Source of the DNA: Eledone cirrhosa | Lineage: Eukaryota | DNA length: 64,000 nucleotides | Assembly (NCBI GenBank): GCA_964016885.1 | Contig: OZ024744.1 | Span: 33,356,001 to 33,420,000, forward strand | Direction of reading: 5' to 3' | Part shown: positions 11,518 through 57,970 of the stretch, piece after piece | Layout of the letters: each line of letters begins with the position of its first letter | How positions within the stretch are numbered: position 1 is the first letter of the stretch | Made by a program: the position numbers and the translations under genes | The notes under the pieces: model-generated | Database searches by the model: none | What the model was told of the DNA's origin: nothing | The model's input: the letters and a program-made list of their open reading frames with translations, nothing else

Positions 11518-11573
11518 ACTGCCTGATGAGGTCATAGCCATTCAATGGCTATCATCGAAATATATATAGCAGT
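11518..11573 (+). ncRNA. Type I hammerhead ribozyme
   Basis: ACTGC-CTGATGA-ggtcATAGCCATT c AATGGCTATcatc-GAAA-tatata-TA-GCAGT, followed by AATAAA. Confidence 0.8.
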
Positions 11574-12624: not shown

Positions 12625-12691
12625 TTTTATCTGATGAAAACACAAATATTATTGCATGATGATGTTTGTTTTTGAAATGCGCATAATAAAA
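12625..12691 (+). ncRNA. Type I hammerhead ribozyme (same family as 54822-54888)
   Basis: TTTTAT-CTGATGA-long stem II-GAAA-tgcgca-TA-ATAAAA. Confidence 0.8.
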
Positions 12692-35529: not shown

Positions 35530-38500
35530 CTACAGAACAATGTAGAGAGAAGGCCCATTTACACGGGCCATTCTCGCTTCTTTCACCCACCTTTCATAAA
35601 ACTGTCTGGGACCAAGCACTTCTCTCTCCATCCTGATTCTTCTTCCGAAGTGGTATCGGAAGAAGTAAACCAGGTGATGGCCGGAGAGAAAGTCACCCGA
35701 CCTCAGACCTTTCAGGCGCGTCCACCACACAACCTCTTTCATCATGGCTATTACGCACAGAAAGACCGCTTCTGCTTCGTTTCTGAAGGGAGGAGGCGGC
35801 TTGATGTTCACCACAGACTCGGCGGTTAATCGAATCGGCGCCACACGCGACAGCAGTCGTTCGACGTAGCCCCACAGATCGGCAACGCCCGGGCAGTGTA
35901 CCAGTGCATGCGCAACGGTTTCCTCGTCGCGCACGCATCTGGGACAGATCTTTTTCGCGGGATCCCTGCCCGGGCGCCCGTGTCTGTAGAGCTTTTCTCG
36001 AACGGGCAGAGCCCCCCGGTAACACTGCCAGGCTAGGGACCTCTGGAAGTTGTCCATGGGTCCCGGGCCGAAAGTTCTACCGAACAGGCTGGCCAGTTCG
36101 TCCTCCTCCATGCCTAGCGACTCTCCAAGGGTGTCGTCGCCCCTGCTAGCCACCAACCCTCTATAGAATGTCGAGGTGGATTCTCCACTGACAGTCGGGT
36201 CCGCTTGCCAGATAGCCGTGAGCGCCTGGGCACACTCAGTGTGCCAGTTGCCCAGTTTTCTCGGTCTTTGCTTCACCCAGGATTGCAGTTCGGTGAGCGA
36301 GACGAGCTGTGGGAAGGCTCGCCTCACAAACGGGGCCCACACCGGCTGACCGTTGAGGAATACCTGTAGATGCCGTAGCCTCAATGCGTGCCTACGCATC
36401 AACAGCCACGGCATACCCAGCCCTCCTTTCGAAGGGTGCTGGCAGCAGATGGATCTCCTCACCATGGGAGGCCGCTTCTTCCAGAGGAACTGGAAGAGCA
36501 TGCGTTCCATGATGGTGAGCTTTTCCTTGGGGCAAGGCACGACGGTCAGGCGGTAGTAGATGACGGACGCTATGTAAGCGTTCGTCACCTCCGCCCGACC
36601 TTTCAGTGATAGTTTGCACTTGGCCCACTTCTGGGTCAGCGCAAACACCCTGCTCGTCACCTCGCCCCAATTCTTCTCCACCTGGAGGTCCGGTCCGAAC
36701 CAGACCCCGAGCAGCTTCACCGGGCCCTCCGTCCACCGCCCGACGACACCGTCTAACGGCATCGGTTTGCCCCTCCACGTTCCGAGTTGCAAACCGACTG
36801 ACTTGTCCTGGTTCAGCTTAGCCCCCGTCAGCCTTTCGTATTCCTCCAGTAGGGTGGCGATCGCCCCGATTTCCGAGGCGTCCGCCACCATTACTGTTAC
36901 GTCGTCGGCATAGGCCGAGACCGCTTTGTGCAATCCCGGTTCCAGGGGTATGCCCCGCAGCAACTCCAACTTCCGCAGCAGTGGCTCGAGAGTCAATACG
37001 TACAGAAGGGAGGAGAGGGGGCACCCCTGTCTGATGGATCGGGTGATTTGAAACGGCTCCGAGAGGTAGCCGTTTACTTTAATCCTAGAGTAGATGTTGC
37101 CACTGTGCATGGCAGAAATCCAGCCCCTGAAAACGGGTCCGAAGCCCGCCGCCGCTAGCACCGCATCCAGGTAACCATGGTCGACCCTATCGAACGCCTT
37201 AGATTGATCCAAGTTGATCAGGGCCCCACCAAAGCCGGGTTCGTAGCCAACCCTCTCTATGATGTATCGCATGAGGTGGAGGTTGTCGTGAATGGACCTG
37301 GACGGGATAGCGCATGTCTGCGCGTCTCCCACCAAACCACCCACCACAAGCGCCAACCTCTTCGCCAACACCTTGGCCAAAATCTGTAACTCTGCATTCA
37401 GCAGAGTTATGGGCCTAAAGTTACTTAAGTCGTCCCCCTTGCTCTCGTCCTTCCTCACTAGCGTGACCACGCCCTTGGTCACAGAACAGGGAATTCTCCC
37501 GTTCTGTTGCCAGTTGCAATAGACAGCCTCGAGGAGTTCGGAGAACAAGACCGGCATAGCTAAATAAAATTCGTATGGTAGACCATCGAGACCCGGGGAT
37601 TTGCGTCTGCTGCATTGGCTGAGCGCTTCCCCGATTTCAGTGGCTGTGATTGGCCCTTCGCAGCACTCCGCTTCGCCGCTCGAAAGACGCGGTAGACCGT
37701 CGAGGTATGGACCGAAGTCCACATCCCCGTCCGGCCCCCCGCCACCTCCGAACAGTCGAGCAAAGTGCCTTTGAAAGGTCTCGCACATTCGCTCAGGTTC
37801 AAGGATCACCCGTCCATCCTGGTCTCGCAAAGACCGAATGGTGGATTTAATCCCACTCTTGGCTTCTGTCACGCGGGCCCAGCTAACAGCTTTGGTCCCC
37901 TCGTTTCCTAAAGCACGTATTTTACTTCGGACAACGCAGCCTTCGTGCTTCGCGTCAAAGAACTGGCTCAATGCCGTTCTCGTCGCTAACACTCTGGCTA
38001 CGTCTCCGCTCCTAATCGCCTCTTCTAGTTTATCTGTTAACTCCCTTTCCCTCCTATTTCTATTCGCCGCTAGTTCCTTACTGTAACCTATCGAACTTAC
38101 TCTAATCTCTCTCTTTAGAGATATCCACCACCTACTGTTGACGATCGCTCCCGTCAACCGCATCTTAACTAAGCTACTAATCCGGTTTCTGTAATCTTTC
38201 TTTGTCGGTAAGGACAAGTTCATCTTCCAGTAACCGGGACCCTGTCTATGCGTTCTATCAAGGTTGACCACGCAGGTCACTAATTTGTGATCTGAATAGC
38301 CAACCATGATCAGTTCTGGACAACTAAATACGTCCCTATCCTTACTCCTAACCAAAAACCTATCTAGGTACGATCTAGATTGTCCACTGCGGTTTGCCCA
38401 GGTCCAGGTTGGCGCAGTTGGACAATCTAGTCGAAATCTATCGACCAGGTCGAATCGATCGAGTAACCCCTTGAGGCTGCTACACCCCCCTCTATCGGGA

Positions 38501-38962
38501 CATGCCCCTGCATAGTCCCAACGCGCATCTAGGATTCCATTCCAGTCCCCCACTAAAAGCAGGGAACGCGACGTTCCTAGAAAAGTCTCCAGACGTTGGA
38601 AGAAGTCGGCTCTCTCCGCCCCGAAGGGAGCATAAAGACCGACCAGTCTGAAAGCCCCGCCTTCACCACCTCCGACGTCCAGCACCAGTAATCGACCCCC
38701 CGGGTCCGAGTGAACAATCTGTACGTCGAGAGTTAGACGTTTATCCAGCAGTACGGCAACTCCCCCCCCCCCCGCCTCCGGGTTGACAGAGAGATGCGTG
38801 CATCTCAAAGTCATCGAAGGCGGGCGCCAGCTGTCTCACGCTGCTGATCCGACTCTCGCAAACAACCATCACATCTATACTTTGTGACCTGAGGTCACTT
38901 AGAAGCTTTGCTTGCTTCCAAGCTGAGCTCAGGCCACGCGCGTTCAAACAGCCAACTCTCAA
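35530..38962 (-). CDS. Tx1/L1 ORF2: APE endonuclease + reverse transcriptase + C-terminal Zn finger; one frameshift in a 12-nt homopolymer (38762-38773)
   Basis: LNARGL, CES, GVAVL, YAP, GDWN, YLDR, SDH (APE); KSPGLDG, NFRPITLLN, DQSKAFDRV, RQGCPLS, YADD (RT); CPRC..ETVAHALVHC. Confidence 0.92.
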
Positions 38963-38967
38963 TTGAT

Positions 38968-40830
38968 CTATTTTGGTGTTGAAAGTGAAGAAAGAAAAGC
39001 ACTTACCTCTCCGGGTTGCGTAATTTCCATGGCATCAGGTGTGTTGGGTGGAGGGATGTTTTGTGGTGGTGTGGGGGTACACGTGTGTGGTGGGGTTGGG
39101 GTATTTGGAGTTGTGTCAGGGAGAGGGGCGGTTATGGGGAAATCTTTCAAGAGGACGCGATTCAACGGTTTTAAACAGGGGGGGCTCACGTCCCGTCTAA
39201 ATTGTTCTTTTAAGGAACGATAAAGGTCCAGAGGGACCTTTATCATTTTTAAATGGGTGAAGTTCTCTGTTGAGATAAAGTTTGGCCCTTCGGTCTGCAC
39301 CATAGGGTTATTGTTTATTAATTTAACCAGTTTTTTGTTTTCTTTATTTATATATGTGTATTGCAACGTCTTTTTTTGTGATGCTGTCAATGTTTCGGAG
39401 AGGGGAGGCGCAGATTTATTTTTGTTTGTTGAGGGTGGGGTGTTTTTGATTGGAGTTGGTGTTTGTGTGTGGGTTATTTGTGGTGTGCTGGGTGTGTGTT
39501 TTCTTTTTTTTCTTTTAACTTGTCTGAAGGCTTCTCCTCCTTCTTCTTCAGAAGTTGGGGGAAACTCTTCAGCGCTAGGTGGGAGGGACGTGTTGTGTGG
39601 TTGTTTTTTTTTTGCGGGAGGGGTAGATTTGTTACTGTTTTTTTTATTATTTGTTTGGAATGGGTTTTGTGGTGGTGGTGGTGGTAATGTTTGTGTCGTG
39701 CTTGTGGTTGGTAATGGTGGTGGTGATGTTTGTGTTGTGGTTGGTGGTGGTGATTTTTGTGTCGTGCTTGTGTTTGGTGCTGGTGGTGGTGATGTTTGTG
39801 CTGTGTTTGTGGTTGGTGGTGTCTGTATTTTGTTTGCTGTGTGTGGTATTAGTGTATTTTTGGAGGTGGGTGGTGCTGGTGTACTGTTTGTGGTGGGTGT
39901 GGGCAATAGTCCTTTTTGGGGGATACGTTTCGGGCAGTTAGCCTTAACGTGTCCCCTTTCCATGCATAAATAGCATGCTGGTCTTCTCCCCTCTACAATT
40001 ATGTCTATTGGGGTAAGGTCATCCAGCCAGATGCGATCCGGGATTTGTGCTATTCTTTCGGGCCTCATTTGGACTAGTATGTCGAGGCCCATTCCCAGGA
40101 ACGCATCTCCAGTTGCCTTCCCCATTGACAGCATAGTGTCTTCGCCCATATCAATGAAGCCAGCAATAGCCCACCAGAAGTCCATTGTGGGCAGCATTGT
40201 TTTTACTTTTATTCTTTGTGTTCTTCTACCCATGTAGGAGGGATAGAAGCTATATGTTGTCGACGAGAGTGGGCTTAGGGAAAGCTGAACCGCTGTTTCT
40301 TTGTCTCTTGTTAGGACCGAAATGCTGCCATAGAGTCGGTCCTTTCGTATGAAGAGAATATTCTTCATATAATCTTTTAGGACTAACTCTATTTCCATTT
40401 GGCTGGGCTGTGCTGGCTTTCTTGACTGGTTTAGTATAGTTCTGTATATAACTGTGTTTTCTGCTCTGGCTTTCTTGAATTCTGGGGGGGAGTTAATGGA
40501 AAACATTCCGTTCTCCCCCAAAACAATATGTTTCTTTGCTTCGGCCAGTTTTTCTCTGGCGGCAGTTAGGTCAATTGGTGTGTATGTAATGGATTGCTTT
40601 GTTTTCTGGGCGAAAGTTGCCCTGTCGTTATTTGTATTATTTTCTGTTTGTTTGTTTTCTGTTTGCTCATTTTCCTTAACATTTGTTTTTTCATTTTGTT
40701 TGTTTGTTTCAATGTCTAATTTTGTTGTAATTATTTTTTGTTCTTCAGACTTGGGGGGCGTGGCAGAGCTAATGGCAGACATGTCTGCCATCTTTTCCGC
40801 CATGCTGCCAAGAAAGAAATTTTTCGGCAA
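38968..40830 (-). CDS. Tx1/L1 ORF1, gag-like protein with CCHC zinc knuckle and Pro/Thr-rich linker
   Basis: 620 aa open frame; EGRRPACYLCMERGHVKANCP; basic RKKRK motif. Confidence 0.9.
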   Translation of the reverse strand: MPKNFFLGSMAEKMADMSAISSATPPKSEEQKIITTKLDIETNKQNEKTNVKENEQTENKQTENNTNNDRATFAQKTKQSITYTPIDLTAAREKLAEAKKHIVLGENGMFSINSPPEFKKARAENTVIYRTILNQSRKPAQPSQMEIELVLKDYMKNILFIRKDRLYGSISVLTRDKETAVQLSLSPLSSTTYSFYPSYMGRRTQRIKVKTMLPTMDFWWAIAGFIDMGEDTMLSMGKATGDAFLGMGLDILVQMRPERIAQIPDRIWLDDLTPIDIIVEGRRPACYLCMERGHVKANCPKRIPQKGLLPTPTTNSTPAPPTSKNTLIPHTANKIQTPPTTNTAQTSPPPAPNTSTTQKSPPPTTTQTSPPPLPTTSTTQTLPPPPPQNPFQTNNKKNSNKSTPPAKKKQPHNTSLPPSAEEFPPTSEEEGGEAFRQVKRKKRKHTPSTPQITHTQTPTPIKNTPPSTNKNKSAPPLSETLTASQKKTLQYTYINKENKKLVKLINNNPMVQTEGPNFISTENFTHLKMIKVPLDLYRSLKEQFRRDVSPPCLKPLNRVLLKDFPITAPLPDTTPNTPTPPHTCTPTPPQNIPPPNTPDAMEITQPGEVSAFLSSLSTPK

Positions 40831-41003
40831 AAATAGATATTTATTTTACCCCCTAAAAAGGGGGTAAATGCAAAAATGTTTCCCTAAATAACAGGGTTAG
40901 TGTTCCAAATGTGTTGCACTAAAAAATTTATCCGGTACTTACAATAGTAAGGGTAAATCCCGATGGAATAGCGGAGCCGATGCGAAGCGTGTCTTACTCT
41001 ATC

Positions 41004-41034
<31 letters not shown>

Positions 41035-41051
41035 GTAGATAGATAGATAGG

Positions 41052-41084
<33 letters not shown>

Positions 41085-41152
41085 GTGATGTTACTTGTTG
41101 AGACTGGTAAGACTTATTCAACATAGTACTGCATACTTAAGGAATGTAGAGA

Positions 41153-41242
<90 letters not shown>

Positions 41243-41359
41243 TCTATTTAGTTCTATTTATTCATTCGACGGAGTTCACTTTGACATAGAGCTTTATTGT
41301 ATCACAGTCACGGACATATTTTACAGGAAATACTACGTCTCTTATTCATGATTGTTTAG

Positions 41360-41393
<34 letters not shown>

Positions 41394-41739
41394 TCACACA
41401 CACAAACAACACACACTCTCTCATGCACATACATCAGTTCATGTGGTGTATATTTATGCAAATGAAACACATGTGGAGGTGTTTTTAAGGTAGACTTTGA
41501 GATATTTTAAACGTATGTCAGCACTGATCGATCATACAACTCCACATTTTACCTCCAACCTTTAATCGCAACCTTTTTTTTATTGTTCATACATATAAGG
41601 AAATTGTTTTCCAATATATGTTGTTCAACTTAAACTCGTATGTGGTTCGGAATTGAGGAAGATTTTGTTGTTCTTTTCAATAGATATTGTGAAATAAGTG
41701 TTTGTATTTAGTAGTTGTAGAAGTATATCGTATAATAAT

Positions 41740-43170
41740 TGTTTCTATTTCTGGCACAAGCGCCAGCAATTATCCCAGTGTATTACTGGTACTTTATTTT
41801 ATCGACCTCCATGAGGATGAAAGGCAAAGTTAACCTCGGCAGGATTTGGATTCAGACAGCAAATGGACGTAACTCTATACCTTTATAATAACTAGCAGAA
41901 TGAAGAGCAATAGTGACGAAGCTCATTCTACTGACATGGCTTTAAAATTGAGGCTTGTTTGCATTATTGCAAACGAATCGAATGTTATTATTAATATTAG
42001 AAAAGCGGTTGATTGGCAGTGTCGGTAGAAGGTCGGACGCCATGCTTTGACGCATAGAATTACGGACCCTGCCATTCTGAGTTCAAATCTCGCCGAGGTT
42101 AACTTTGCCTTTCTTCCTTACGGGGTCGATAAAATAAAGTACCAGTAATGCACTGGGTAATTGCTGGCCTTGTGCCAAAAGTAGAATCAATTATTAATAT
42201 CAGAAAAGCTCAGATTACATTTATTGTATTCAAACATGTAGAACGAAATTTTCTCTGTCGTTGAGGTCATTCATTTTCCTATTACCCACTCTACTACCCT
42301 AAGTATTGAGTACTCCGGTGCGTTATGATCCATCTGGTTCCTTACCACAACTCCTTCGTTATATATATATATACATATATACCACGATAATATATATATA
42401 TTGGAAGGGTCATATTGTCAATATAAATACACGTTCCAGTTCAGTTTCAATTCAGTATATTATTAGTTGAGTAACGAATCTACCATCGGTAATTTAGTAA
42501 GCGGGCGGTTGTATAATTGTCAATACGCTTTCGTCATACATACTGTGACCTTAGTATTGACGGTCAAAAGAGCAAGGATAATTAGGAAAATGGCCACAGG
42601 AAATGTGTGTGTGAGCACGCGTGTGATTTTATTAGCAGCATGACCCACCCAAAGTATAACAATGTAAGTATATTATTATTATAATAAAGGGGGAATGCGG
42701 GACTGCGTCTTGAATAGATTTTTTTATTCCGTTTGTAAAATACGTTGGATTACTTTAAATAAATAACTGTTTCTACTTTAGGCACAAGACCAGCAATTTT
42801 ACCAGTACATTACGGGTACTTTATTTTTTATCGACCCCGTAAATGAATAATGAGTGAATATTACATAATTTATGTACTAAATTTGGTAGCTATTGATTAA
42901 ATATGAATGATTTTATTGTTATTTCAAGATTCACATCTTTAAAATGTTCTAATGTCAACACTTCCGGTTAGCGTCCATTATATTATATGGATTGGCAGTA
43001 TCGGTAGAGAGTCGGGCACCATGCTTTGAAGCATAAAGTTACGTCATTTATGATCTGAGTTCAAATCCCGCCGAGGTTAACTTTGCCTTTCATCCTTACG
43101 GGGTCGATAAAATAAACTACCAGTAATGTACTGGGTAATTGCTGGCCTTGTGCCTAAAATAGAAACAATT
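41740..43170. mobile_element. SINE copies (minus 41740-41880; plus 42003-42195; minus partial 42765-42840; plus 42988-43170) with PLE pLTR fragments between them
   Basis: Same SINE core as 3893-4612. 42280-42360 is the reverse complement of 11680-11760. 42400-42663 is related to 9250-9415. Confidence 0.75.
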
Positions 43171-43184
43171 ATATTATAATACTT

Positions 43185-43324
43185 ACCAGCAGAATGGCCC
43201 GGCGTTGTTCGGGATTTGCTCTAGGGTTCTTATATATTTGATATATATTTATCCTTATCGAGCTTCGTGAAATAAATATGTTTGTTTATATTTTGTTATT
43301 GTGTATGCAAAAATATCTGTACAC

Positions 43325-43372
<48 letters not shown>

Positions 43373-43598
43373 GTGGTTACCCAACAGTTAGTTCACCATA
43401 CCGAGAACAATTGTTTCACCTTAGCGTATCTTCAGCTCGGAATGGGCATGGTTATAGGACCATTCCGAGCTGAACATCCGCTAAGGTGAAACATTTGTTC
43501 TCGGTATGGTGAACTAACTGTTGTGTAACCACTTCTACCTAACTCGTCCCTTGGACTGAGTGCTCTACCACTAAGGATATTACCTTCCAGTGTTCCAC

Positions 43599-43647
<49 letters not shown>

Positions 43648-45612
43648 TAACAGATTAAATTTTAAGCAAAGAATCGCTGCTTTCAGCCTTAACAGGATCT
43701 TCTGAAACTTAATAAATCAATCTGTGAACGCAGAAGTAAATATTTCGAAAAAGTTACACACTATATATATATATACACACTATATATACATACACACACA
43801 CAGAGATAGTGTCATAATGTCGTAATGCAGACAGCCAGACATACAGACAGATATTATAAGGGCGCGACGTTGTAGCTATGTATCTATATAAAAAGAAAGA
43901 CTAAGAATTATAGAGAGATCGCTAAATCACCTAATGCGGTCCCTAGGGCATTGGAAATTTGAAATATGTTTTGCTCAAAATACTCACACGACCATAAGCA
44001 TTACATGTGTAAAGTTTGAAAACAATCGGTTGGGTGGTTCTCGAGTTTTAGGGAGTCAGACAGACAGACAGACATTTTCCGTTTTAGATATATACTAGCA
44101 GAATGGCTCGGCGCTGCTCGGGATTCTAAACATAGATTGGCATGTATATCCCTCCTTTCTGAAACAGTACAGAGAAGTACGGAATACCTCACCCTCGGGA
44201 TGGTGTCTACATTTTGTGCTTATAAAAAAAATTCGTCGTAGATTACCAGGGTTTTTTCCGTGCGAAGAAAATCAATACTTTATCGCGAAATAAATACTTT
44301 TGTTTATATTTTGTTATTGTGTATGCAAAAGCATCTGTACACGAATATATAATTATATATATATATATTGAAATAACAGATTAAAGTTTAAGCAAAGCAT
44401 CGCTGCTTTCACTCTTAAAGGGATCTTCTGAAACTAAAAAAATCAATCTGTGAACGCAAAAGTAAATATTTCGAAAAACGTTACACACTATATACATATA
44501 TACACACACTACATATACATATATACACACATACACGGATAGCGACGTCATAATGTCGTAATTCAGACAGCCAGACCTACAGACAGATATTATAAGGGCG
44601 CAACGTTATATCTATGTATCTATCTAAAAAGAAAGACTAAGAATTATAGAGAGAGATCGCTAAATCGCCTAATGCGGTCCCCAGGGAATTGAAAATTTGA
44701 AATATATTTTGGTCAAAACACTGACAGGACCATAAGTATTACATGTGTAAAGTTTGAAAACAATCGGGTGCGTGGTTCTCGAGTTTTAGGGAGTCAGACA
44801 GACAGACATTCTCTGTTTTATAAATATACTAGCAGAATGGCCCGGCGTTGCTCGGGATTTGCTATAGGGTTCTTAAATATTTGATATATATTTATCCTTA
44901 TCGAACCTCGTGAAATAAATACGTTTGTTTATATTTTGTTATTCTGTATGCAAAAATATCTGTCCATAAATATATAATTATATATATATATATATTAAAA
45001 TAACAGACTAAAGTTTAAGCAAAGAATCACTGCTTTCACCCTTAACGGGATATTCTACCTAAAAGCAGTATGAAGTACATACACTAAGACTAATTGATGT
45101 AATCTTTGGCCTTGTTTGTTTATATTTTGTTTTTGTGTATGCAAAAATATCTGTACACGAATATCTATATTAAAATAACATATTAATGTTTAAGCAAAGA
45201 ATCGCTGCTTTCAACCTTAACGGGATCTTCTTAAACTAAAAAAAATCAATCTGGAAAAGAGGAAGACGATACTTTGGTTCGTGAAGACGTTCCCTGGCAT
45301 AAGAATATATATACACACACACACTGATCGCGTCATAATGACGTAATGCAGACAGTCAGGCATACAAACAGATATTATGAAGGCGCGACGTCATATATAT
45401 GTATCTATCTCAAAAGAGAAAGACTAAGAGAAAGAGAAAGAGATCGCTAAATCGCCTAATACGGTCCCTAGGGCATTGAAAATTTGAAATTTTTTTAGCT
45501 CAAAACACTTCCAGGGTCATACGAGTTACATGTATAAAGTTTGAAAAAAACCGGTTGGGTACTTCTCGAGTTTTAGGGAAACAGACACACAGACATCCTC
45601 TGTTTTATATAT
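43185..45612 (-). mobile_element. Head-to-tail array of three non-autonomous Helitron units (~43185-44092, ~44093-44826, ~44827-45612) carrying captured Naiad pLTR pieces
   Basis: On the minus strand each unit ends with a CCCGA(G/A)CA(A/G)CGCCG(G/A)G hairpin, then CCATTCTG and CTAG/CTGG-T (the Helitron hairpin-CTRR 3' end). Units start in AT sequence ((TC)TAAAAC..ATGTCTGT). Interiors match the 46 kb Naiad pLTR. Confidence 0.78.
43368..43602. repeat. Fold-back mini-element (78 bp arms, 43368-43537, plus tail) in (TA)n with two divergent hammerheads (minus 43401-43440; plus 43465-43504)
   Basis: Minus: CCGAG-CTGAAGA-tacgctaaggt-GAAA-caattg-TT-CTCGG. Plus: CCGAG-CTGAACA-tccgctaaggt-GAAA-catttg-TT-CTCGG. 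Confidence 0.85.
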
Positions 45613-45705
45613 ATATATATGCAAAAGTTTTATTTAAAATTGTTGGGTTACAACAAGTAAATATTTTATAACTGATATAAAGCACTCGACAAGTTTTTGG
45701 AGTAG

Positions 45706-46041
45706 ATATACGATATTAAACAAATGGAAACTATATTTATAAAACCATATTTATTTCATTATACATATTTCAGGGATACCATATTAAAAATATGGCATGC
45801 CTTCGTCAGATAAAATAAAATATATAACCAGTTTTATAAATAATTTTGACGTACCATAAATATAGCGACCATTAAGGTAGGAGGCTGGCTTGGTACGTCA
45901 AAATTATTTATAAAACTGGTTATATATTTTATTTTATCTGACGAAGGCATGCCATATTTTTAATATGGTATCCCTGAAATATGTATAATGAAATAAATAT
46001 GGTTTTATAAATATAGTTTCCATTTGTTTAATATCGTATAT
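45706..46041. repeat. Apparently perfect fold-back (151 bp arms, 34 bp spacer) with two divergent hammerheads (minus ~45752-45817; plus 45930-45995)
   Basis: TATTTTAT-CTGACGA-aggcATGCCATATT ttt AATATGGTATccct-GAAA-tatgta-TA-ATGAAATA; arms 45706-45856 and 45891-46041. Confidence 0.9.
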
Positions 46042-46463
46042 ATATATATATATAGTAATAATAATAAAATTGAAGACTAAAATCCAAAGAGGGCTCGATA
46101 AGGAAAATATATATCAAATATATAAGAACCGTAGAGCAAATATTTATTAAAATAACAGATTAAAGTTTAAGCAAAGAATCGCTGCTTTCACCCTTAACGG
46201 GATCTTCTGAAACTAACATTGCCAGAGAACGTCTCTATGCACCACCTAAGAGAACATTAGTCTACGACCTCTTTTATACCATAAACGTGGTTTTATCTTT
46301 GCGCGTAATTGTTTTTCACCGCTCCTATTAATGAGGTATTATTCGTTTTTCCCCGTTCTTTGCCAGCGAACGTTACCACGAACCAAAGTATCGTCTTCCT
46401 GTCTTCCTCCGGTTGCAACGTTTTTTGAAATATCCAGTTCTGCGTTTACAGATTGACTTTGTT

Positions 46464-46514
46464 AGTTTCTGAAGATCCCGTTAAGGGTGAAAGCAGCGAT
46501 TCTTTGCTTAAACT
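46464..46514 (+). ncRNA. Type I hammerhead ribozyme in the Naiad 5' pLTR (canonical core)
   Basis: AGTTT-CTGAAGA-tCCC gttaa GGGt-GAAA-GCA gcgattctt TGC-TT-AAACT. Confidence 0.8.
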
Positions 46515-46667
46515 TTAATCTGTTATTTTAATAAATATTTGCTCTACGGTTCTTATATATTTGATATATATTTTCCTTTTCGAGCCCTCTTTGGATTTTA
46601 GTCTTCAATTTTATTATTATTACTATTTGTCTCCTTCGGTTGAGCACTCTACTGACTTATATTCATC

Positions 46668-48797
46668 ATGCAGAAACAACATCTGAATATTTTTACAAAG
46701 AACATACCCGTACCAAGCAGGAAAACATACCTAAAACTCCTGATACAGAAAACAGACACGTTCATTAAAAGGTTGCGTTGGCGTGCCTTTTATTTCGATA
46801 ATCCGCGAAAAGCAGACAACAAACAGGATAAATTTGGATTTAAAACTTATAATAACCCTCCGTGGAACCCAGCATTGCTACCCTTCGAAAATGATGTCTT
46901 GGAACTCATTTGGAATATCAAATTTCGGAATAGGAGCAATTCCTTCCAGCAAGACCTGAAGAATAGAATTCGTTCTATTAAGGATTCTAACGCCGTGCAC
47001 GTCCATTCCGACAAAGCTGGCAACCTATATCAAGTGGAGCGCAGTACTTACCATCAACTACTACATAATTCTGTAACTAAGGATCACCGTAAAACTAATC
47101 GGTGCGTCATCAATGAAATCAACGATGCTGGGTTTAAAATCACATCTGATCTCAACATCCTGGACCGGACCGAACCTCTGAACCCTATTTCTACCCACTT
47201 TACCCTGAAGGATGACAAATCCAATTTTCCGAACAACCCCTCTATTCGGCTTATTAACCCTACGAAGTCCGATTTAGGTAGACTTAGTAAAACGATTCTT
47301 GATAGAATTATACCTGAAATTAGAAGTTTGGCCCCTCTCGCACTGTGGAACAATTCTTTCGCGGTGATTGATTGGTTCAACGGCATATGTAACAAGGAAC
47401 ATTGCCGTTTTATCCAATTCGACATCAACAATTACTACTCCTCCATCACTTTACCACTTCTCCTTAGAGCTATCAATTTCGCTAAAACACTCACAGTGGT
47501 TAAGGATTTTGAAGTTGATGTCATCCTTAATGCCCGAAAGTCGGTGATTAATTTCGACGACTCTATTTGGATTAAAAAATCCAATAGTACCCCATTCGAC
47601 GTGAGTATGGGCGCCAGTGACTCTGCGGAGGTTACTGATCTTATTGGCCTTTTCCTTCATTTCTCTATCAAGGACGAATTCCCCAACGTGGGCGGTGGTT
47701 TGTACCGTGACGATGGTCTTTTGACCATGACTAAGTGCGGACCTCGTGCTTGCGACAGGTTCAGAAAAGAACTCACAGCCTTCTTTAAAGGCTTCAACCT
47801 CTCTATACAGGTTGAGGCCAATCTCTCGGTCGTTAATTACCTCGACGTTACCCTCAATTTATTGAATGGGTTGTATTACCCGTATAGAAAGCCGAATGAT
47901 ACGCTTAATTACATAAGTAAGCATTCCAACCATCCTGCCAGCATAACCAAGAACCTGGTAAGAAACGTTTCGTTGAGGCTTTCCCGTCTTTCCACCAACG
48001 AGCGCATTTTCAACGACCATTCCACTTATTACAATGAAGCTCTTGCTCGAAGTGGATTTGTCGATAAGGTAGCATATACAGAGTACGAAAATAGACCTAG
48101 AAGAAATAGATCCCGTCGCATTTGTTGGTTTAACCCACCATATAATATGGAGGTGGTCACACCATTAGCTAAGATCTTTCTTTCCCTTATTACGAAGCAT
48201 TTTCCCCCTACACATAAATATAGTAACATTTTTAATAGAAATACTATTAAAATTTCTTACTCTACGACTCCTAACCTTGCACATAACATCACAGCTTCAA
48301 ATTTAGCTAAACTACCTAGCCGTAGGAACACGTGCAACCCTGTAGTTAGTACTAAGTGTAATTGTAGGAATCAGGCTGATTGCCCCCTATCCGGGAAATG
48401 CCTCTCTAGTAACATTGTCTACAAATGTAAGGTTGTAACACCCACGTCCCGTAGGGCCTAAATAGGGTTAACCGCCAATAGTTTCAAGCAGCGTCTTTAC
48501 ATGCATACCCATTCTTTTCGCTACCCTCTAAGAAGGAATATGACGTCACTTTCAGATTATATCTGGAGTCTAAAAGACAACCACACCCAATATAAGTTAC
48601 ACTGGGAGATCCTAGCTAGGGCTTGATCGTATAACGGAAATAAAAGACCATGTGACCTCTGCGCCGCTGAGGCCCTGGAAATACTCTACGCTACAGACCA
48701 CATCTTAAACAAAAAATCTGAGGCAATTTCGGCTTGTAAACATAAATTGCACAAAACTTTCCTGCATTACAGCCCCGCGTTATACCTTAACGGATAG
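46668..48797 (+). pseudogene. Naiad RT + GIY-YIG ORF (709 codons) with two in-frame stops (TAA 48459, TGA 48624)
   Basis: SDKAGN, FIQFDINNYYSSI, FDVSMGASDSAE, LYRDDGL, WFNPPY, CNC..CPLSGKC..IVY..A*IGLT..FKQR..H..SLSDYIWSLK..CDLC..LNKKSE..CKH. Confidence 0.92.
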
Positions 48798-49798
48798 CAC
48801 GATCTATACGTGGATATTTTACGTCTTGATGTGGGAGCTAAGTATATGTTTTGTTTATTCCTTTACTTATTTGCATAGGTAAGTATATATTACTCGTATG
48901 TTTTGTGAAGGTATGTATACCTTCTCGTACGTATATTTGACTGTTATAGCGTATAATTTTTACATATTCTGGTATTTAGGGTTTGGCTATGTGTATACGG
49001 GAGCTTTGCGTCCGCGTGAGTGTGCAGGTTCGTACGTATGGTGGGTGTGTGTATATGTGTACTTCTTGTTTTAGTTGACTTACGTCTCCGAACATTCGTG
49101 TATTTATATGTAGGTATGCGTGTGCGCTTGTTATATACGTATTTATTTACTTATATACGTTTATATAATTATTTATTTATTTGTACACAAGCATACACAC
49201 ACACACACATATTTATATGTGCGTGGTTCTGTATACCCATGGTAAGGTTTTGCGTATGCTTGTGTATGTACGTATCTGTTTGCGTGTATGTATTTATTTG
49301 TTTCTATTACTTCTGTATTGCATTTATTTACTTTGTTCTTAACTCTGTAGCGGAGATTCATTTGGTCTCCTAGTTAGAATTTTAGTCTACGATTTCTGCT
49401 ATACCATTTACGTGGTTTTGTCTTTGCGTGCTATTGTTCTCCACGCTCCACATATGACTTATTATCTTCGTTTTTTCGTTCATTGCCAGAGAACGTCTCT
49501 ATGCACCACCTAAGAGAACATTAGTCTACGACCTCTTTTATACCATAAACGTGGTTTTGTCTTTGCGCGTAATTGTTTTTCACCGCTCCTATTAATGACG
49601 TATTATTCGTTTTTCCCCGTTCTTTGCCAGCGAACGTTACCACGAACCAAAGTATCGTCTTCCTGTCTTCCTCCGGTTGCAACGTTTTTTGAAATATCCA
49701 GTTCTGCGTTTACAGATTGACTTTGTTAGTTTCAGAAGATCCCGTTAAGGGTGACAGCAGCGATTCTTTGCTTAAACTTTAATCTGTTATTTTAATAA

Positions 49799-49894
<96 letters not shown>

Positions 49895-50380
49895 TTATAT
49901 ATATATAGATAGATATATATACTCTATCGATTGGTCTATTTTAGATCATTCGAGGGAGTACCAAAGGGGCACAAAGAATTGTTCTTCGTGTACCACTGAA
50001 AAATTTAGGATTTTACAAAACTTGAAAGCCACTTCAACTTGCCTGAACTCCAAGACCGAGATCTTCAGATGTTGTCCTCACCTGAAATCGCATCTGATCT
50101 GTAACTGGATTGACATTCCTACGATGACTCAACCACCTTGAACTTCTTCTCTGCTCTTACATCCACTACGAGTGCCTTAGATCCACTACGATTTTTTTAC
50201 TTTCTGAACTCACTTTCTGTACTCTTATATTCTTTTTCTCCCTCATCTCCCCTTATATTTAAACCTTTTCCTATGTCATTTATTTTCCTTTTTCCTCCCT
50301 ACTTTCTACCTTACCCTTTACATACCCACCTTTTTTATTTTTAGATATTTATTTCTGTGTGTGTGTATTGCGTATATGTG

Positions 50381-50453
<73 letters not shown>

Positions 50454-50817
50454 ATGTATGTATATGTATGTGTATATATAATTATATATATCTGTATGTA
50501 TATGTATGTGTGTATATAATTGAATTTTATATGCTTCTGTTGTATTTGTGTGTGTATATATATATATATATATATAAAGAATTAAAAAGAACAGAAAGAT
50601 GCAGTAAAATAGATTTATTCGGTTCTTTCTGTTCTTTCTGTTCTTTTTAATTCTTTATACACGCCCCGGAATATAGCTAAACTGGAATATACACCTTTTT
50701 TCTGCATTTCGTTGAGCACCACTCTGTTGTAAGCTGACATTCCACTACACGGTACATAACACTGTGTCCTGGAAAACATTAATGCACTCGTGCATAACAA
50801 ATATATATATATATATA

Positions 50818-50858
<41 letters not shown>

Positions 50859-51384
50859 CTGTGTGTGTGTGTATATATGTATGTGTGTGTGTGTGTGTGT
50901 GTGAGTTTATATATGTGTGTGTGTATATTTATTAAGGTGGTGACGAAACTTTTTGTACATATGTCTGGGTCTGTGTATATATGTATTTTTATATATTTGT
51001 TTATATGTGTATATATATATAAATGCCCCAGAAACGGCTTGAGCTCTGCCGTCGGGGTCATACTTTTTCCTATATGTATATATATATGTATATGAATGTA
51101 TATGTATGTATATGTGTGTGTATATGTATGGTTGTGTGTGTGTATGTGTGTGTGTGTATATATATATATGTATATGTATATATGTATGTGTATGTATATG
51201 CATAATTACATACAGTGATTTAATGCTTATTTTCATTGATCATTTTCTCCAGGAATATTTTGAGTGCTCTAAATCAGCTATAAACATTTATACCCTTTTC
51301 TAATTATTTATTTATTTATTATTTGTCGTATTCCCAACTATTTGTTTACCCCTTTCACCTTTTTATTTTTATATATATATAATA

Positions 51385-52852
51385 TTTCAAGCTGTGACAC
51401 GCCGCCCAGGCCTTGCCCTTCCTCTCAACCACATCATCTTCCGTATTCCCAATCTTTGCTCCCAAATACAGGAAGTCCTCAACCAATTCCAGCGGCTTCC
51501 CGCCTACATTAGTGATCCCCTCTGGCTTCTCAACATTCTCTACCAGATATTTTGTTTTAGTCTCATTCATTCTCAGCCCCACACTCATCGACACAGTCTC
51601 AACCTCCCGCATCAAATCCTCTGCCTCCTTCACTGTATTTGTCACCAGAACTATGTCGTCGGCAAATTCAGCATCCGATACCTTTTTCGCCCCAACTCTC
51701 CTGCTCTGAGCCGGTGCTACAGCAAAGCCAGAGTCCTGGTGTTTCTCCAGTGCAAGGCGCATACAATAGTCCACTACGATGATAAAAAGGTAGGGAGCCA
51801 ATGTATCTCCCAGGAGCACTCCAGCCAGTATCTCAAAGAACTCTGTCATCCCATCAGGTGTAATGACTTGGGCTTTGGTGTTGGTGTAGAGCAGTGATAT
51901 CAGGTCCACTATCCTCTTGGGGATTCCATAAGCCTGTAAGATCTTCATCAGCCAGTAACGGTCCACAGAATCAAAGGCCTTCCTAAAGTCAATGAAAACC
52001 ATGACCGCAGGAAGTCACTTTGCTCTAGCTCCCTCTAATATCCTCCTCAGCATCAGGATGTGACTGGTGGTTGATCTACCCTCTCTGAAGCCGTTCTGGT
52101 TGTCCCTGAGCTTCTTCTCCATCTCAGGCTGGATCCTGTTAAGAATCATCCTGTTGAGGGTCTTTCCCACAAGTGACGTCAGTGAGATCCCCCGGTAGTT
52201 GTTGGTGTTAGAGAGATCTCCCTTCTTTGGCACTGGGACGATGTTACTGATCCTCCACTGATTCGGGGTAACTCCTTTCTCCAGTGCCCCGTTACAGAAC
52301 CCCAGGATGATATCATCAAAATCACACCTCTTCATCACCTCTGATGCCACTCTAGCTTGAGATCGGTGTGGAAGTCGGACCTTCGTAGAGACCTGAAAAT
52401 CCGCCTCTTCATTGCTGTAGTGGAGTCTGTGCTGCTGTGTGGGTCTGAGACTTGGACACTGACCAAGAGACTCACTCAGATGGTGGATGGGTGCTACACG
52501 AGAATGCTGAGGATGGCTCTGAACATTAATCAGTATACACTGAGGATGAAAAACTCAGAGCTGTATGGGAGCATCCCAAAAGTCAGCTCAAAAGTGACAC
52601 AGAGGAGACTGAGGTTGGCTGGACATGCTCACCGACATCCAGAGTTGACATTGCACTCAGTGCTCCTTTGGGAGCCCCTACATGGACACACTAGAAGAGG
52701 AAGACCAAGGTTAACATATGTTGATGCCATAAGGACAGACACTGGTCTGTTGGAGATGCAGGATATGGCAGCGATAATGAGGGACAGAGACCGCTGGAGA
52801 GAACTCGTCCATGGATCTCGGGAATTTTACCCGCCTTAGATAGATAGATAGA
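51385..52852. mobile_element. RTE-like LINE with 5' inversion (minus 51385-52354; plus 52354-52852) and (TAGA)n tail
   Basis: The minus part encodes PVPKKGD, NYRGISL, QNGFR, FIDFRKAFDSV, GDTLAPYLF, FADD ... KAWAACHSL. The plus part resumes at SLRSVWKS..LLCGSETW. Confidence 0.92.
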
Positions 52853-53435
52853 TATAATATTTATGTATTTTCTTATATATATATGTGTGTGTGTGTATAT
52901 GTATGTATATATATATGTATATATATGTATGTATATAAATATATTTAAGAGTGAAACAAGGTTCAATGAATACATCTAAGAATGAGTTTTACACACATAC
53001 ATATGTGTGTGTAAGTATTTATATGTATGTATATATATATATATATGTGTGTGTATGTATGTGTATGTGTTTGTATGTGTATTTGTATATGTATGTGTAT
53101 GTATGTGTGTGTGTATGTATTTATTTATATGTATGTATGTGTATGTGCAATTGTGTGTTTTGCTTACCACGTGTGTTTGTTCAATTATTTGTTGCCTGTA
53201 TCGCTGTCAACTTTATAATAATTTTTACATTTATTTTTATTCTTATGTGACGGTATTTTTATTATTATATTTGTTCTTATAATTATTTGTGTGTGTGCGT
53301 ATGTAGGTGTGTGTACATATATCTATATTTGTGCATGCGTATGTATGCGTGTATATATGTGTATGTATGTGTATGTATGTACGTGTGTATATATGTATGA
53401 TTGTGTGTATGTATGTATATATATAGAGAGAGAGA

Positions 53436-53482
<47 letters not shown>

Positions 53483-53753
53483 GTTTGTGTGTGTTTGTGT
53501 ATTTGTGTGTATGTGTGTGTATGGATATGTTGATATATATGCGTGTATGTATATGTATATGTATGTGTATTTGTACGTGTATGTATATGTGTATGTATGT
53601 ATATATATATATATGTGTGTATATGTATGTATATATATGTGTGTGTGTGCATGTGTGTTTATTTTTCCTTTCCTTCTTCCTTTTCCAGCCTCATATTCAT
53701 ATAGGTTATATTTTTGTTTTTACAATCCAATGTCAATAAATACACCAGGATTT

Positions 53754-53815
53754 TTTCATTCTGATGATTGAAAGCGAAAATGTGTTTGTTTTCAAGAAAC
53801 CACTGGTAAATGAAA
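53754..53815 (+). ncRNA. Type I hammerhead ribozyme
   Basis: TTTCATT-CTGATGA-TTGAAAGCGAA aatgtg TTTGTTTTCAA-GAAA-ccactgg-TA-AATGAAA. Confidence 0.85.
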
Positions 53816-54015
53816 TAATTATCTTATGTTGTTTATTACATAACTATATATATAGTAGTAATAATATTTATACGTATATATGTTTAATATGCAATTATAA
53901 ATAGGAACTAGCCGGTTACCGGTATGAAAATAGGCTGAATGCAAATTATCAAGTGTTTTACAGAGCCGATATACAAAGTCTTAAAACAATCAAATCTTAG
54001 TTTAATACATTTATT

Positions 54016-54062
54016 TGCTGACAATTGTTTCTTCCAGAGTGAAGTCTGGATTCATCGGAGCA
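54016..54062 (-). ncRNA. Type I hammerhead, core variant CCGAUGA
   Basis: Minus: TGCT-CCGATGA-aTCCAGA cttcac TCTGGAa-GAAA-caattg-TC-AGCA. Confidence 0.7.
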
Positions 54063-54525
54063 TAGGGAATGTCTGAACAGGTGATTAAAATCCTAGTCAT
54101 TTAGAAAATTTAGGTAGATACATAAGAGTTGTTAGTGTGCTAGACATCATGTATAGTATCAGGAGTTAAAAAGATGTTATTGAGAGAACACAATTACAAG
54201 GAGCAATGGTTGAAAGTGTAAGAGGTACAAGCAAAAAAATACAGGCAAAAAAAAGTAGCAAGCAAGGAAAAATGAAAGATAGGATAGACATAAGATATAA
54301 GATTTAAAGTATCCTAGCTTTGGAGATAAGGTAATGTTAGGGGTATACAATGCAGGAGTCAATAAAATCAATAAGGCATGTATGAGGAAAGAGTTTTATT
54401 ACAGCTGAAATAAGCATATTTCGTGTAGAATATTAAAGATGTTTAAAATGGCGTGCTATGTGGTAGTGAGAGATGTGGTGATTCTCGACTGTTTTCAAGT
54501 CCAGCAGTAGCAAGCGGTGGGAGGG

Positions 54526-54569
54526 ACCGTCCTGAAGAAGACCAGTTAAGCCTGAAATGCATAGACGGT
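54526..54569 (+). ncRNA. Type I hammerhead ribozyme with extended stem I
   Basis: ACCGTC-CTGAAGA-agaccagttaagcct-GAAA-tgca-TA-GACGGT. The flanks GTCCAGCAGTAGCA / TGCTTCTGCTGGAC also pair. Confidence 0.78.
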
Positions 54570-54716
54570 TGACCCCCCTGCTTCTGCTGGACACCACCAG
54601 AGGGCGTTAGTCCCCGGTGATTGCATAGCTACGGCTTCCTAAAACGGTGTTTCTTCAGAAATACGAAATTTCTATACATTTTTGTATAAAGGTATGCTTG
54701 AAGCGAAATCTTATTT

Positions 54717-54789
<73 letters not shown>

Positions 54790-54792
<3 letters not shown>

Positions 54793-57572
54793 ACAAAAGA
54801 TGGTTAAAAGAGTTCCATGTATTTTATTATGCGCATTTCAAAAACAAATATCATCATGCAATAATATTTGTGTTTTCATCAGATAAAATAGGAAGACATG
54901 ATATGAAGGTTAAAAAACACTTGAGAGTAAAAAGTGGAGAGGGAGGAGAATAATGAGGAAGGATGAGATAGGAGGAGAGATGGGTGATAGAGAGAGAGAT
55001 AGCTTTTATAACTGAGAAAAATATATTGTTTTACATAGAGAGGTTGAAAAACCGTTGGAATATAATGTATAAATTAAAAGAATTTGAAAATTAAGGAAGA
55101 GAAAAATAATGTAAAGTTAAGGTTTGTATATAATATGTACGATGAAAAGAAAATGTTAATATGTATTAAGAATAATATTTAAGGGTTTAATAATATGTGC
55201 GATGGAAAGATACTGTTAATATGTATTAAGAATAATATTTAAGGGTTTAATAATATGTGCGATGGAAAGAAAATGTTGATATGTATTATTAAAAAGAACA
55301 ACAAGTAATGTACGTAAGGATATATTGTGAGATGAGCATGAGTAAGTTAGATGAAAGGGAGAATAAAATAATGAATTGAGGATGAATAATCTAACGTCAA
55401 AAAATGTTTATGTTTACGAAGGATTTTTGCAAGGTAATATGAAGTAAGAATGTATTGTATTGTGTCATAATTGTTTCTATGTTAGGCAACAGTGAGAAAA
55501 GGTACAGATTAGGAGTTAGACATTAAAAGAAAAAGAGAAGAAAGGGAAAATGAAGAAAGGGAAGTGATAAATAGGAGTGATATAGAATGAGTAACAAGTA
55601 TTATATAATGTATAATAAATAACTTTGAAATAAGGTAGAAAGATGGGTATATTTTTAAAGAAGTATATATATATATATATATATGTGCCTTTAAGAAAAA
55701 GATTCTAAATTGATAAAGTTTTGGATATTAGCTGTATACTTTGTGGAATGTTTTGTGGAATTTATGCAAGCAGAGAGAAAACAAGTCAGTGCGTCTATTT
55801 ATTATAGAATCTAAATTAGATATAATGGTAAATTTTTCATTTAGCCTCTGAGATTATGTCAAAACTTGGCATCGAAAAAAAGACCGAACCATTCCTCCCA
55901 AGAACTCCGAGGATAAATCTCAAGGATGACAAAAACAATTTTCGCACTGAACTACCTGTTAGATTAATCGCCCCCTCTAAATCAGATCTGGGGGTTGTTA
56001 GTAAAGCCATCTTGGATAGAATTATCCCACAGGTTCGTTCTAATTGCTCTTCTTTGAACTTAAATTTATGGTTTGGTACTTCTGAAGTGATTGGCTGGTT
56101 CAACAAATTGAATAATAAAAACAAACTAAAATTTGTTCAATATTGCCAGCTACTATTCTTCTATTTCGCCTTCACTTCTCAATAATGCTCTATCTTTCGC
56201 ACTTAAATATTCTGACATCACCACAGATGAACTTCACATCATTCTCACCGCACGTAAAACCATCCTAGAGTTCAACAATGAATATTGGACCAGAGCCGAT
56301 ACCTCTAACAACTTCGACACCCGATTCATCCCAATTGACAGATTTAATTGGTATCTTTATTTTGAACTCTTTGAGTCGGAAAATTCCTCAACTTCGCGGT
56401 GGAATTTATCGTGACGATGGACTCTTTACTATCTTAAATTGCAACATAGTTAACCTTAATATTATTAAGAACAATATACGTAATCTCTTTAACCAACATA
56501 ACCTAAAAATTGAATTTGATAACAGCATCAAACTAGCTAATTTCTTGGATGTATCTCTTAATCTTGACACTGGCCTATATTACCCTTACCATAAAAACAA
56601 TGAGAACCTAAATTATGTTAATTTTAAATCTAACCATCCTACTAATATCAAGAATGCTATAGTTAGTAATATTGGAAAAAGAATATCTAACCTATCTTCT
56701 AATAAAAACATCTTTGATGCTAACGCCAATTACTATAATAACGCGCTTTCTAAAGCCGGTTATCCTGATAAAATCAAATATAGTAAAGAAACAAATTCTA
56801 GAAGATCTTACAGTAGAATAATTAATCATGATCATTCCAATAACTTTAATAAAAGACCTAGATACAAAAACATAATCTGGTATAATGCTCCTTTCTCCAT
56901 CTCTATTAATAATAATATTCCTAAATTATTCTTTAGTGCCTTAAATAAATGCTTCCCTCCCTCACATATCTATAGTAAAATATTTAACAAACACACTATA
57001 AAATGTTCCTATTCGACATCCTCCAACATTTCCAACATTATCTCTAAACACAACAATAAAATACTAAATACTAAATCTCTTCCTTCCAACACTGAATATC
57101 ATAATAATAGTAATAGTACTCCCGACGTCATTGTAAACCCTAGGCTAATTTCTGCAAACCCAAATACAACGTCAAACAACTTCGCTAAATGTTCTTAATC
57201 CCATTCTAAATCAAGAAACTATTATTCCTATCGCAAATAACTTCTCCAATCCAATTCCTTCTATAGATAACACTAGGTCACTCGTTAATAATCTATTTAA
57301 TCGCAATTGCAATTGCCCTGTTAAAAATAAATGTCCTCTCAACAACCATTGTCTTGATAAAAACTTAATTTACGAATGTAAAGTTATAACTGACACCAAT
57401 TCCTTCACCTATTTTGGCTCCACTTCCACCTCCTTTAAAGCACGTCTTTGTAACCATCATTCGTCTTTTAAATACAAACTTAAAAGAACCAACACGGCTC
57501 TCTCAGAACTCATATGGTCCTTGAAAGACAAAAATATTAAATATAGCATCTTTTGGAAAAAGGTTTCTTCTG
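54790..57572. mobile_element. 5'-truncated Naiad-type PLE (plus ORF remnants 55840-57572) preceded by an inverted Naiad 3' end/pLTR (minus 54790-55838) with a hammerhead at 54822-54888
   Basis: Plus: KTEPFL..VRLIAPSKSDLG, IYRDDGL, WYNAPF, CNCPVKNKCPL..IYEC..YFGST..FKAR. Minus 55838->55730 reads EKFTIISNLDSIINRRTDLFSLCLHKFHKTF (Naiad C-terminus). The hammerhead matches 12625-12691. Confidence 0.85.
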
Positions 57573-57970
57573 CGTATGTGTGTGTGTGTGTATATATGTG
57601 TGTGTGTGTGTTCGTGGGTATGTGTGTGTTTATGTATATATGCGTGTGTGTGTATGAATGTATGTATATGTGTGTATATATGTGTGTATATATGTATGTA
57701 TATGTATGTATATGTATGTATATTTTGTCTGTGGATTATAAACATACAGAGACATTAGCCCTGAATTTTTATATTTACATACACTTTTTCGACATGCGTA
57801 TACATGTGAACATACATTTTTATGCATATCTGTGAACGAAGTTACTTGCATATATACACACACCTAACTGTATTTTCTTGATGAATGTTTATGTATTTCA
57901 TTGGTCTATTTAAAATCTATTCCCAAACAGACCTGTAATTTTGAATTGTTGTTATTATCAATAAATATAC

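Follow-up and report, generated by a model that had tools for sequence, protein, structure and literature searches.

The amplification of retroposed sequence inside Helitrons is described from bats, where retroposition into a Helitron was followed by amplification, empty sites exist and Helitrons carry retrotransposon pieces (PMC4224331). Among Penelope-like elements (PLEs), Naiad is defined in PMC8557442 by an N-terminal endonuclease, whereas Neptune and Nematis have a C-terminal endonuclease with a CX2-5CxxC-like linker. Non-LTR retrozymes are described as short tandem repeats with canonical hammerheads that are expressed as circles (PMC7229834; bioRxiv 10.64898/2026.07.22.740005). A literature search that largely covered the main texts of freely accessible papers listed no Helitron with either a PLE pLTR or a hammerhead, and in the available part of the Octopus vulgaris repeat annotation (PMC13282606) the word hammerhead is absent.

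Here, a window of 64,000 nt of Eledone cirrhosa DNA (C28:33356001-33420000; genome 3.0 Gb) was analyzed, in which three Helitron units with pieces of a PLE pLTR lie next to a PLE. They represent a genuine chimera that is mobile and present in many copies. Its kind is known, its history can be traced in unusual completeness, and its pLTR sequence is most likely a passenger and not a spreading ribozyme.

Array units and the neighbouring PLE

As the sequence-only reading had described, the units at 43185..45612 lie head to tail on the minus strand, and all three have at their 3' end a common short hairpin with CTRR, after which stands a T. Unit 1 (43186..44094), a non-autonomous Helitron of an older subfamily, is composed of a 5' body, a pLTR piece, a TA tract with a private PLE insertion, a spacer, an inverted tail and a 3' end of short hairpin and CTGG (43186-43213, minus strand). 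Unit 2 (44095..44828) also belongs to an older subfamily, and an older set of dispersed relatives at 87-93% was retrieved when it was used as query; its 3' module is a different one without the tail, and its 3' end (44095-44122, minus strand) has a hairpin with private changes and CTAG. Unit 3 (44829..45620) is a member of a young subfamily and harbors two pLTR pieces, the inverted tail and a remnant of the sequence immediately preceding the RepHel start; its 3' end is a 28-mer with hairpin and CTAG (44829-44856, minus strand). The 5' TC is absent at all three window junctions, that of unit 3 included. Over the common 5' half the units are 77-88% identical, in agreement with the divergence noticed before.

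When the array was compared with the neighbouring PLE by BLAST, pLTR matches of 88-94% identity (E 1e-9 to 1e-41) were obtained, and all pLTR pieces lie on the minus strand. In unit 1, the 3' piece of the pLTR at 43641..43752 (BLAST match 43635-43752) contains a hammerhead-like motif with the core CAGAAGA and private damage in stems I and II, and it stops at the pLTR terminus, which is followed by (AT)n. The 3' piece of unit 2 at 44367..44485 (BLAST match 44361-44485) again has the core CAGAAGA, with a privately damaged stem II. The first piece of unit 3 at 45169..45305 (BLAST matches 45168-45257 and 45260-45305) has the core AAGAAGA and an internal deletion, and the second at 44994..45057 (BLAST match 44988-45056) is truncated through stem I and the core, which reads TAGAATA. 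The segments that had been called hammerheads are therefore pLTR pieces that sit where claimed, but none of their four cores is CUGANGA. The tail was found in units 1 and 3 only and, as observed earlier, in the orientation opposite to the pLTR pieces: at 43214-43263 in unit 1 (plus strand, inverted relative to the Helitron; 94-96% identity to 46537-46585 and 46093-46141) and at 44857-44907 in unit 3 (plus strand, likewise opposite to the Helitron; 88-90% identity). The unit interiors had been taken for rearranged pLTR pieces, but the pLTR-derived bases amount to ~168/910, ~125/733 and ~256/786, roughly one sixth to one third per unit, and the remainder is Helitron sequence. Taken together, the earlier observation of the array is partly confirmed and its interpretation partly supported.

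The large PLE at 46048..49800 (plus strand) is a young element with an inverted 5' copy (46052-46218), two pLTRs (46217-46538 and 49481-49800) and an ORF at 46668-48797 (plus strand) that contains two in-frame stops. It had been named a Naiad; the ORF, however, runs RT first and GIY-YIG endonuclease last, with the RT motif YRDD near residue 346, the endonuclease from about residue 585 and a linker CxC...CPLxGxC between them, and no N-terminal GIY-YIG was found. With CNCRNQADCPLSGKC ahead of the endonuclease and CDLC and CKH behind it, a C-terminal GIY-YIG, a CX2-5CxxC-like linker and CCHH-type cysteines are all present. The protein aligns with P0073 over 704 residues at 40%, and P0073 has a Pfam GIY-YIG match at 599-639. 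The window PLE has SDKAGN (DKA instead of DKG), and since P0073, with its C-terminal endonuclease, has ADKTTN, DKA is not diagnostic here. In Pfam and NCBIfam no family was found for the window PLE protein; the domain order was read from the translation, the GIY-YIG relative and an Atlas lead to RT-bearing clusters. The element is thus not a Naiad; by its domain order and linker we provisionally label it Neptune-type. A comparison of the other PLE-like ORF of the window with the window PLE was not significant. A reading of the TGA in the endonuclease as selenocysteine was rejected, as an ordinary codon stands there in another copy (L224).

This neighbour had also been regarded as the source of the pLTR pieces. 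Instead, an older subfamily is the donor: 17 of 118 upstream positions of the Helitron pLTR piece do not match the young PLE beside the array, and among the first 30 of the 5,201 places of a Helitron-type diagnostic 27-mer, 17 were ordinary older-subfamily PLE copies, 12 were Helitron-borne and one was unassigned. This sample suggests roughly two thousand Helitron-borne copies of the 27-mer. For annotation it carries a warning, as with ~40% of the older pLTR sequence copies being Helitron-borne (a rough value, 12/30 sampled) PLE counts and ages would be inflated.

Sequences of two further PLE-type families adjoin or interrupt the array. Between unit 3 and the large PLE lies a palindromic remnant of a second family (45620..46044, strand undefined), with inverted arms at 45703-45856 and 45891-46044 that are 99% identical and with canonical CTGACGA cores; this element was also found in a Helitron TA tract at L101. 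Its family has a long stem II, and relatives with paired stem II changes occur at many loci. The private insertion in the TA tract of unit 1 (43368..43600, strand undefined), which the sequence-only reading had missed, belongs to a third family; on its minus strand the core at 43435 is a canonical CTGAAGA. The remnant is a 239-nt palindrome, each arm of which has canonical hammerhead cores. For its family 4,097 first-look candidates were obtained, and 40 of 40 scored had nearly the same ends and lay in TA tracts. Boundaries as constant as these suggest that it is a separate non-autonomous unit, and none of the 29 other copies fetched (L246-L274) adjoins a Helitron module.

Elsewhere in the window, further PLE remnants or canonical hammerhead-like motifs of other families were seen at 10094-11560, 9252-9290, 12627-12690, 54060, 54886 and 55832-57835. 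On the minus strand, 35530-40845 holds two long open frames, one of 625 aa and one of 1,101 aa. Motifs like those of an endonuclease and an RT are seen in the second, and we take the pair to be an apparently intact non-LTR retrotransposon of the Tx1/L1-like kind. Beside the array, an abundant SINE-like repeat, presumably of the octopus type, is present in two copies (42000-42190 and 43000-43165), and a short piece of it occurs inside the older Helitron subfamily. Beyond the large PLE, TCTA-TCTATATATATA at 49890-49915 (minus strand) may represent 5' ends that units 2 and 3 have lost by displacement, although GATA repeats are common here.

Dispersal and coding parent of the Helitron family

With unit 3 as query, 6,550 first-look candidates were obtained, and all 40 that were scored were near full length at 94-100%. 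Exact copies of the 28-nt 3' end of unit 3 were found at 1,363 places in the genome, the first 70 of which, on contig C1, were used as the sample for family counts. pLTR sequence (motif segment or tail) was present in 60 of these 70 copies, the motif-bearing segment in sense orientation in 52 and the inverted tail at the 3' end in 45. PLE ORF sequence was detected nearby in only two copies and a tandem neighbour of the same family in only six. The chimera is thus dispersed and mobile away from any PLE, as had been anticipated. In the C1 sample T follows CTAG in 69/70 copies, and a 5' start was located in 46, with A|TC in 31 and a TC start in 38. The 29 dispersed unit-3 copies end in CTAG|T in 28 cases, and their 5' junctions are 16 A|TC, 10 CTAG|TC, one C|TC and two without TC (TC start 27/29). 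As flanking direct repeats only TA repeats were found, so that the proposed A|T-type insertion without target duplication holds at dispersed copies, and with copies elsewhere ending in CTAG|T the chimera is neither confined to this locus nor bounded by ends that mean nothing beyond it.

The CTAG|TC cases are composite junctions. Ten of the 29 unit-3 copies (L004, L005, L007, L012, L017, L021, L022, L024, L027 and L029, in their 5' flanks) begin directly after a palindrome with CTAG on both sides, which was seen in 6/70 of the unbiased sample; it belongs to larger composite elements with inverted Helitron pieces and is possibly a second Helitron-type end joined as CTAG|TC. By folding, the 3' hairpin is short and weak (z -0.2 to -1.5). 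The diagnostic core of the unit-3 subfamily has 152 exact places. Since the 30 unit-3 loci were those that matched unit 3 best, their divergence of 1.4% is biased low. In contigs from three runs of one sample, depth at the dispersed copy L002 was very high over the unit and no listed joint crossed it, which is uninformative on polymorphism.

A coding relative was found at L223 (C28:42276707-42282386, minus strand), a decayed RepHel element of 5.7 kb that combines the window-type 5' body, a pLTR piece, Helitron_like_N (E 6e-24), PIF1 (E 9e-36) and the family 3' end, with broken frames. In an older subfamily, the N-terminus of RepHel is fused to the C-terminus of the helicase, as in deletion derivatives. 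From the RepHel parent L223 and these fusions it follows that the units are deletion derivatives of a coding Helitron, and they are non-autonomous Helitrons. No intact RepHel was found among the eight coding candidates fetched, all of which are broken. Judged by the ends and the coding parent, the units would have been moved by rolling-circle transposition through RepHel. Just before the ATG of L223 a pyrimidine run ending in TAG resembles a splice acceptor, and the PLE cargo of this element may lie in a 5' intron.

The hammerhead-like motif

The sequence-only reading had assumed an intact ribozyme. However, the core departs from the canonical one both in the donor and in the carrier: within the sequence context of the young donor, CAGAAGA was found at 10,969 places and CTGAAGA at 28, and older donor copies have CAGA in 15/16. 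In the window PLE, CTGAAGA at 46469 is one of these 28, and the cores at 49733 and 46209 are CAGAAGA; the canonical core that adjoins the array is thus a rare mutation. In the Helitrons, a canonical core was found in 0/69 cores of the unbiased sample (37 CAGAAGA, 10 TAGAATA, 9 AAGAAGA, 6 TAGAAGA and 7 others) and in 0/188 when 188 of 191 cores were compared. The 'PLE_young' group, which is enriched for CTGA by eight loci chosen for that base, was left out of these frequencies.

In a pairing scan, GAAA, stems I-III and the CUU site were found in the donor and in older Helitron copies, and in the unit-3 subfamily C3 is lost and stems I and II are broken. In sibling families of this genome, that layout is combined with canonical cores (55/59 canonical in the third family). 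On both counts, the motif is still a hammerhead homologue. The hammerhead fold was not obtained among minimum-energy folds. An Rfam scan of 38000-56000 with E up to 1 gave 51 matches without any hammerhead family, and the canonical-core motifs at 43435 and 45938 were missed too. In the Neptune-type family, the motif with A at position 4 is constant from old to young, at an upstream pLTR drift of ~14%.

Some constraint on the motif in the donor lineage is indicated by a comparison of the ancestral Helitron insert (see below) with one young window PLE, in which core and stems differ at 1/51 positions vs 17/118 upstream (Fisher p=0.014). In the young Helitron, no sign of motif constraint was detected (4/75 changes in the motif vs 6/71 in the adjacent body of the unit-3 subfamily). 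At the consensus level of older Helitron subfamilies the motif is changed at 0/76 positions vs 0-2/71 in the body, which are too few changes to tell. Two observations speak against a passenger: several Helitron deletions stop at or before the motif, and some Helitron copies hold it two or three times. From the core and stems, little or no self-cleavage is predicted for the Helitron-borne motif, and none in the unit-3 subfamily.

The alternative that survives best is that CAGAAGA is a working natural variant of the hammerhead (U4 to A), and that older Helitron subfamilies, including RepHel-coding copies, would spread a functional ribozyme that cuts their own transcripts. We consider it unlikely. 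The type I architecture is kept and matches that of the sibling families with canonical cores, with the same U-U closure of stem II and a different but paired stem I; in L223 the motif lies ~250 nt ahead of the RepHel start codon, and the conservation of core and stems in the donor lineage fits as well. According to PMC3088659, U10.1-U11.1 is a known natural variant, and U4C loses much activity in vitro yet retains enough in a viroid; cleavage is described as poor for canonical metazoan PLE hammerheads too (PMC4209133). On the other side, the active core has U4 in contact with the backbone (section 8 of PMC3088659), CTGA was found in every other well-represented hammerhead family of a relaxed scan, minimum-energy folding did not return the hammerhead, and the youngest Helitron subfamily spread with its C3 lost and its stems broken. 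Moreover, the constraint test compares with one young copy, and another function of the pLTR could explain the constraint. In the literature searched, largely the main texts of freely accessible papers, no U4A hammerhead was found. It is a quite improbable course of events that an active U4A hammerhead would have been kept unchanged through a PLE family of 11,000 copies and handed to a Helitron, and that this DNA transposon would have spread it to about two thousand sites, among them the 5' leader of its own RepHel gene, and would use it.

Either outcome would matter. If the U4A core cleaves, the hammerhead consensus would have to be widened, together with the descriptors by which some PLEs are said to be free of hammerheads. 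Without cleavage, a motif that is conserved but inactive would have accompanied a PLE family up to ~11,000 copies, a point of relevance for the role of pLTR hammerheads.

Origin of the insert and the array

To trace the entry of the pLTR into the Helitron, a gapped pattern of the two Helitron flanks without the insert was searched, which gave seven places. Four of these (L210, L211, L214 and L216) are empty-site relatives, in which a TA tract stands by itself and PLE sequence is absent; in two of the four an ORF read as the RepHel start follows. The other three are deletion derivatives of filled forms. A pattern of the tail-pLTR junction gave 179 places, of which 20 were fetched, and in six of them (L226-L228, L230, L235 and L237) the ancestral filled form was recognized: a TA tract, the inverted tail of ~90 nt, a 5'-truncated pLTR of ~210 nt that reaches its natural terminus, and again a TA tract. 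The insert measures 275-304 nt in the six copies. (AT)n-AATT flanks it on both sides, clearly in two to three of the six and best in L228 and L237, in low-complexity TA sequence. Upstream, the filled form has ~40 additional bases that are lacking in the empty copies, so that the latter are close relatives and not the exact parent; given these bases and the low-complexity flank, a target duplication is likely but not certain. Free PLE insertions of this genome (L193 and the window PLE) show the same layout, as do PLE insertions in general as described in PMC8557442. Among the junction copies, intermediates were found in which the tail is shifted behind the motif and then beside the hairpin. Together with the tail/pLTR layout of the filled ancestors, they show that the opposite orientations represent the native 5' inversion of the PLE, later permuted.

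The explanation that accounts best for these data, and in which we have high confidence, takes the units for non-autonomous Helitrons. Into an (AT)n tract of their ancestor, a short piece of a Neptune-type PLE was most likely inserted once, and it was then copied along as a probably inert passenger. The insertion would have occurred by target-primed reverse transcription, and a RepHel acting in trans would have mobilized the filled Helitron. Through deletions and template switches at short common words, the pLTR may later have been shortened, 5' ends exchanged, the motif duplicated and the tail brought beside the 3' hairpin.

With its empty sites and filled ancestral copies, this history reverses the direction of the earlier reading, in which a Helitron had captured the pLTR. 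Capture at the DNA level, by end bypass or by gap filling from a neighbouring PLE copy, is a mechanism known from Helitrons (PMC6544945), and the family is strongly mosaic, with junctions at short common words and with a word, TTTTAAT, that is common to the empty site and the pLTR end. However, both natural PLE ends (inverted tail and pLTR terminus) are present in the ancestral insert, which lies in an (AT)n tract with TA-AATT on either side and resembles free PLE insertions such as L193; it is located in the 5' part, upstream of RepHel, and no old 3' end stands ahead of it. Capture is thus largely refuted, and we hold it to be very improbable.

PLE insertion followed by amplification of the filled Helitron leaves the array itself to be explained. 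In a tree of 28 rows, built from the 5' body only and with rough support values, unit 3 groups with young dispersed copies at 100/100, and units 1 and 2 fall unpaired into the older radiation. A retrozyme-like tandem hammerhead array, for which a single template would have been multiplied by a rolling circle or duplicated locally, can practically be dismissed and is refuted for unit 3: although the array has head-to-tail CTAG|T junctions, exact CTAG|TC junctions occur elsewhere too and tandem arrays are possible for Helitrons (PMC12001565), unit 3 is closer to dispersed copies (98%) than to its neighbours (77-79%), the units stem from different subfamilies with different 3' modules, tandem neighbours are confined to the 6/70 copies mentioned above, and units of 730-910 nt with non-canonical cores stand against the ~300-nt canonical-core repeats described for non-LTR retrozymes in PMC7229834. 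Tandem repeats of 150-450 nt with a canonical hammerhead in each unit, by which such retrozymes are recognized, were not found in the array. Unit 3 is followed by the second PLE-type remnant and the large PLE, both of which have a TA tract on either side. On the best reading, elements with TA targets in common have piled up at this locus. They would have entered TA-rich ends one after another, the two neighbouring PLEs being the latest arrivals.

The Helitron family described here is a well-resolved case of an element within an element, as the empty site, the filled ancestor, the coding parent and young derivatives are found in one genome. As in HelibatN424 and other Helitrons of bats described in PMC4224331, a Helitron contains a 5'-truncated retroposed insert, examples of the empty site are known and it is the filled form that was amplified; the bat inserts are LINE-1-mobilized mRNAs with poly(A) and 118 copies, whereas here a PLE pLTR with an inverted tail lies in a TA tract and the carriers exceed 1000. 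With canonical non-autonomous Helitrons of the Helitron1 type, as described in PMC4224331, PMC12001565 and PMC6544945, the units share the 5' TC with a TATATAAA-rich start, the 3' hairpin and CTRR, the lack of a target duplication, a RepHel parent, stepwise mosaic subfamilies and occasional tandems, but they differ in their non-coding retroelement cargo and in a hairpin that is short and folds weakly. The donor resembles the endonuclease-bearing Neptune and Nematis PLEs of PMC8557442 in RT and C-terminal GIY-YIG, linker, pLTRs, inverted 5' copy, tail and TA-microsatellite targets, and is unlike them in a pLTR hammerhead with A at position 4 throughout the family. Finally, like the PLE hammerheads and non-LTR retrozymes described in PMC4209133, PMC7229834 and bioRxiv 10.64898/2026.07.22.740005, the cargo has a type I hammerhead-like fold near the pLTR end, is derived from a PLE and is amplified without a protein of its own, whereas in the present case the ends are those of a DNA transposon, the motif is mostly single and its core is non-canonical.
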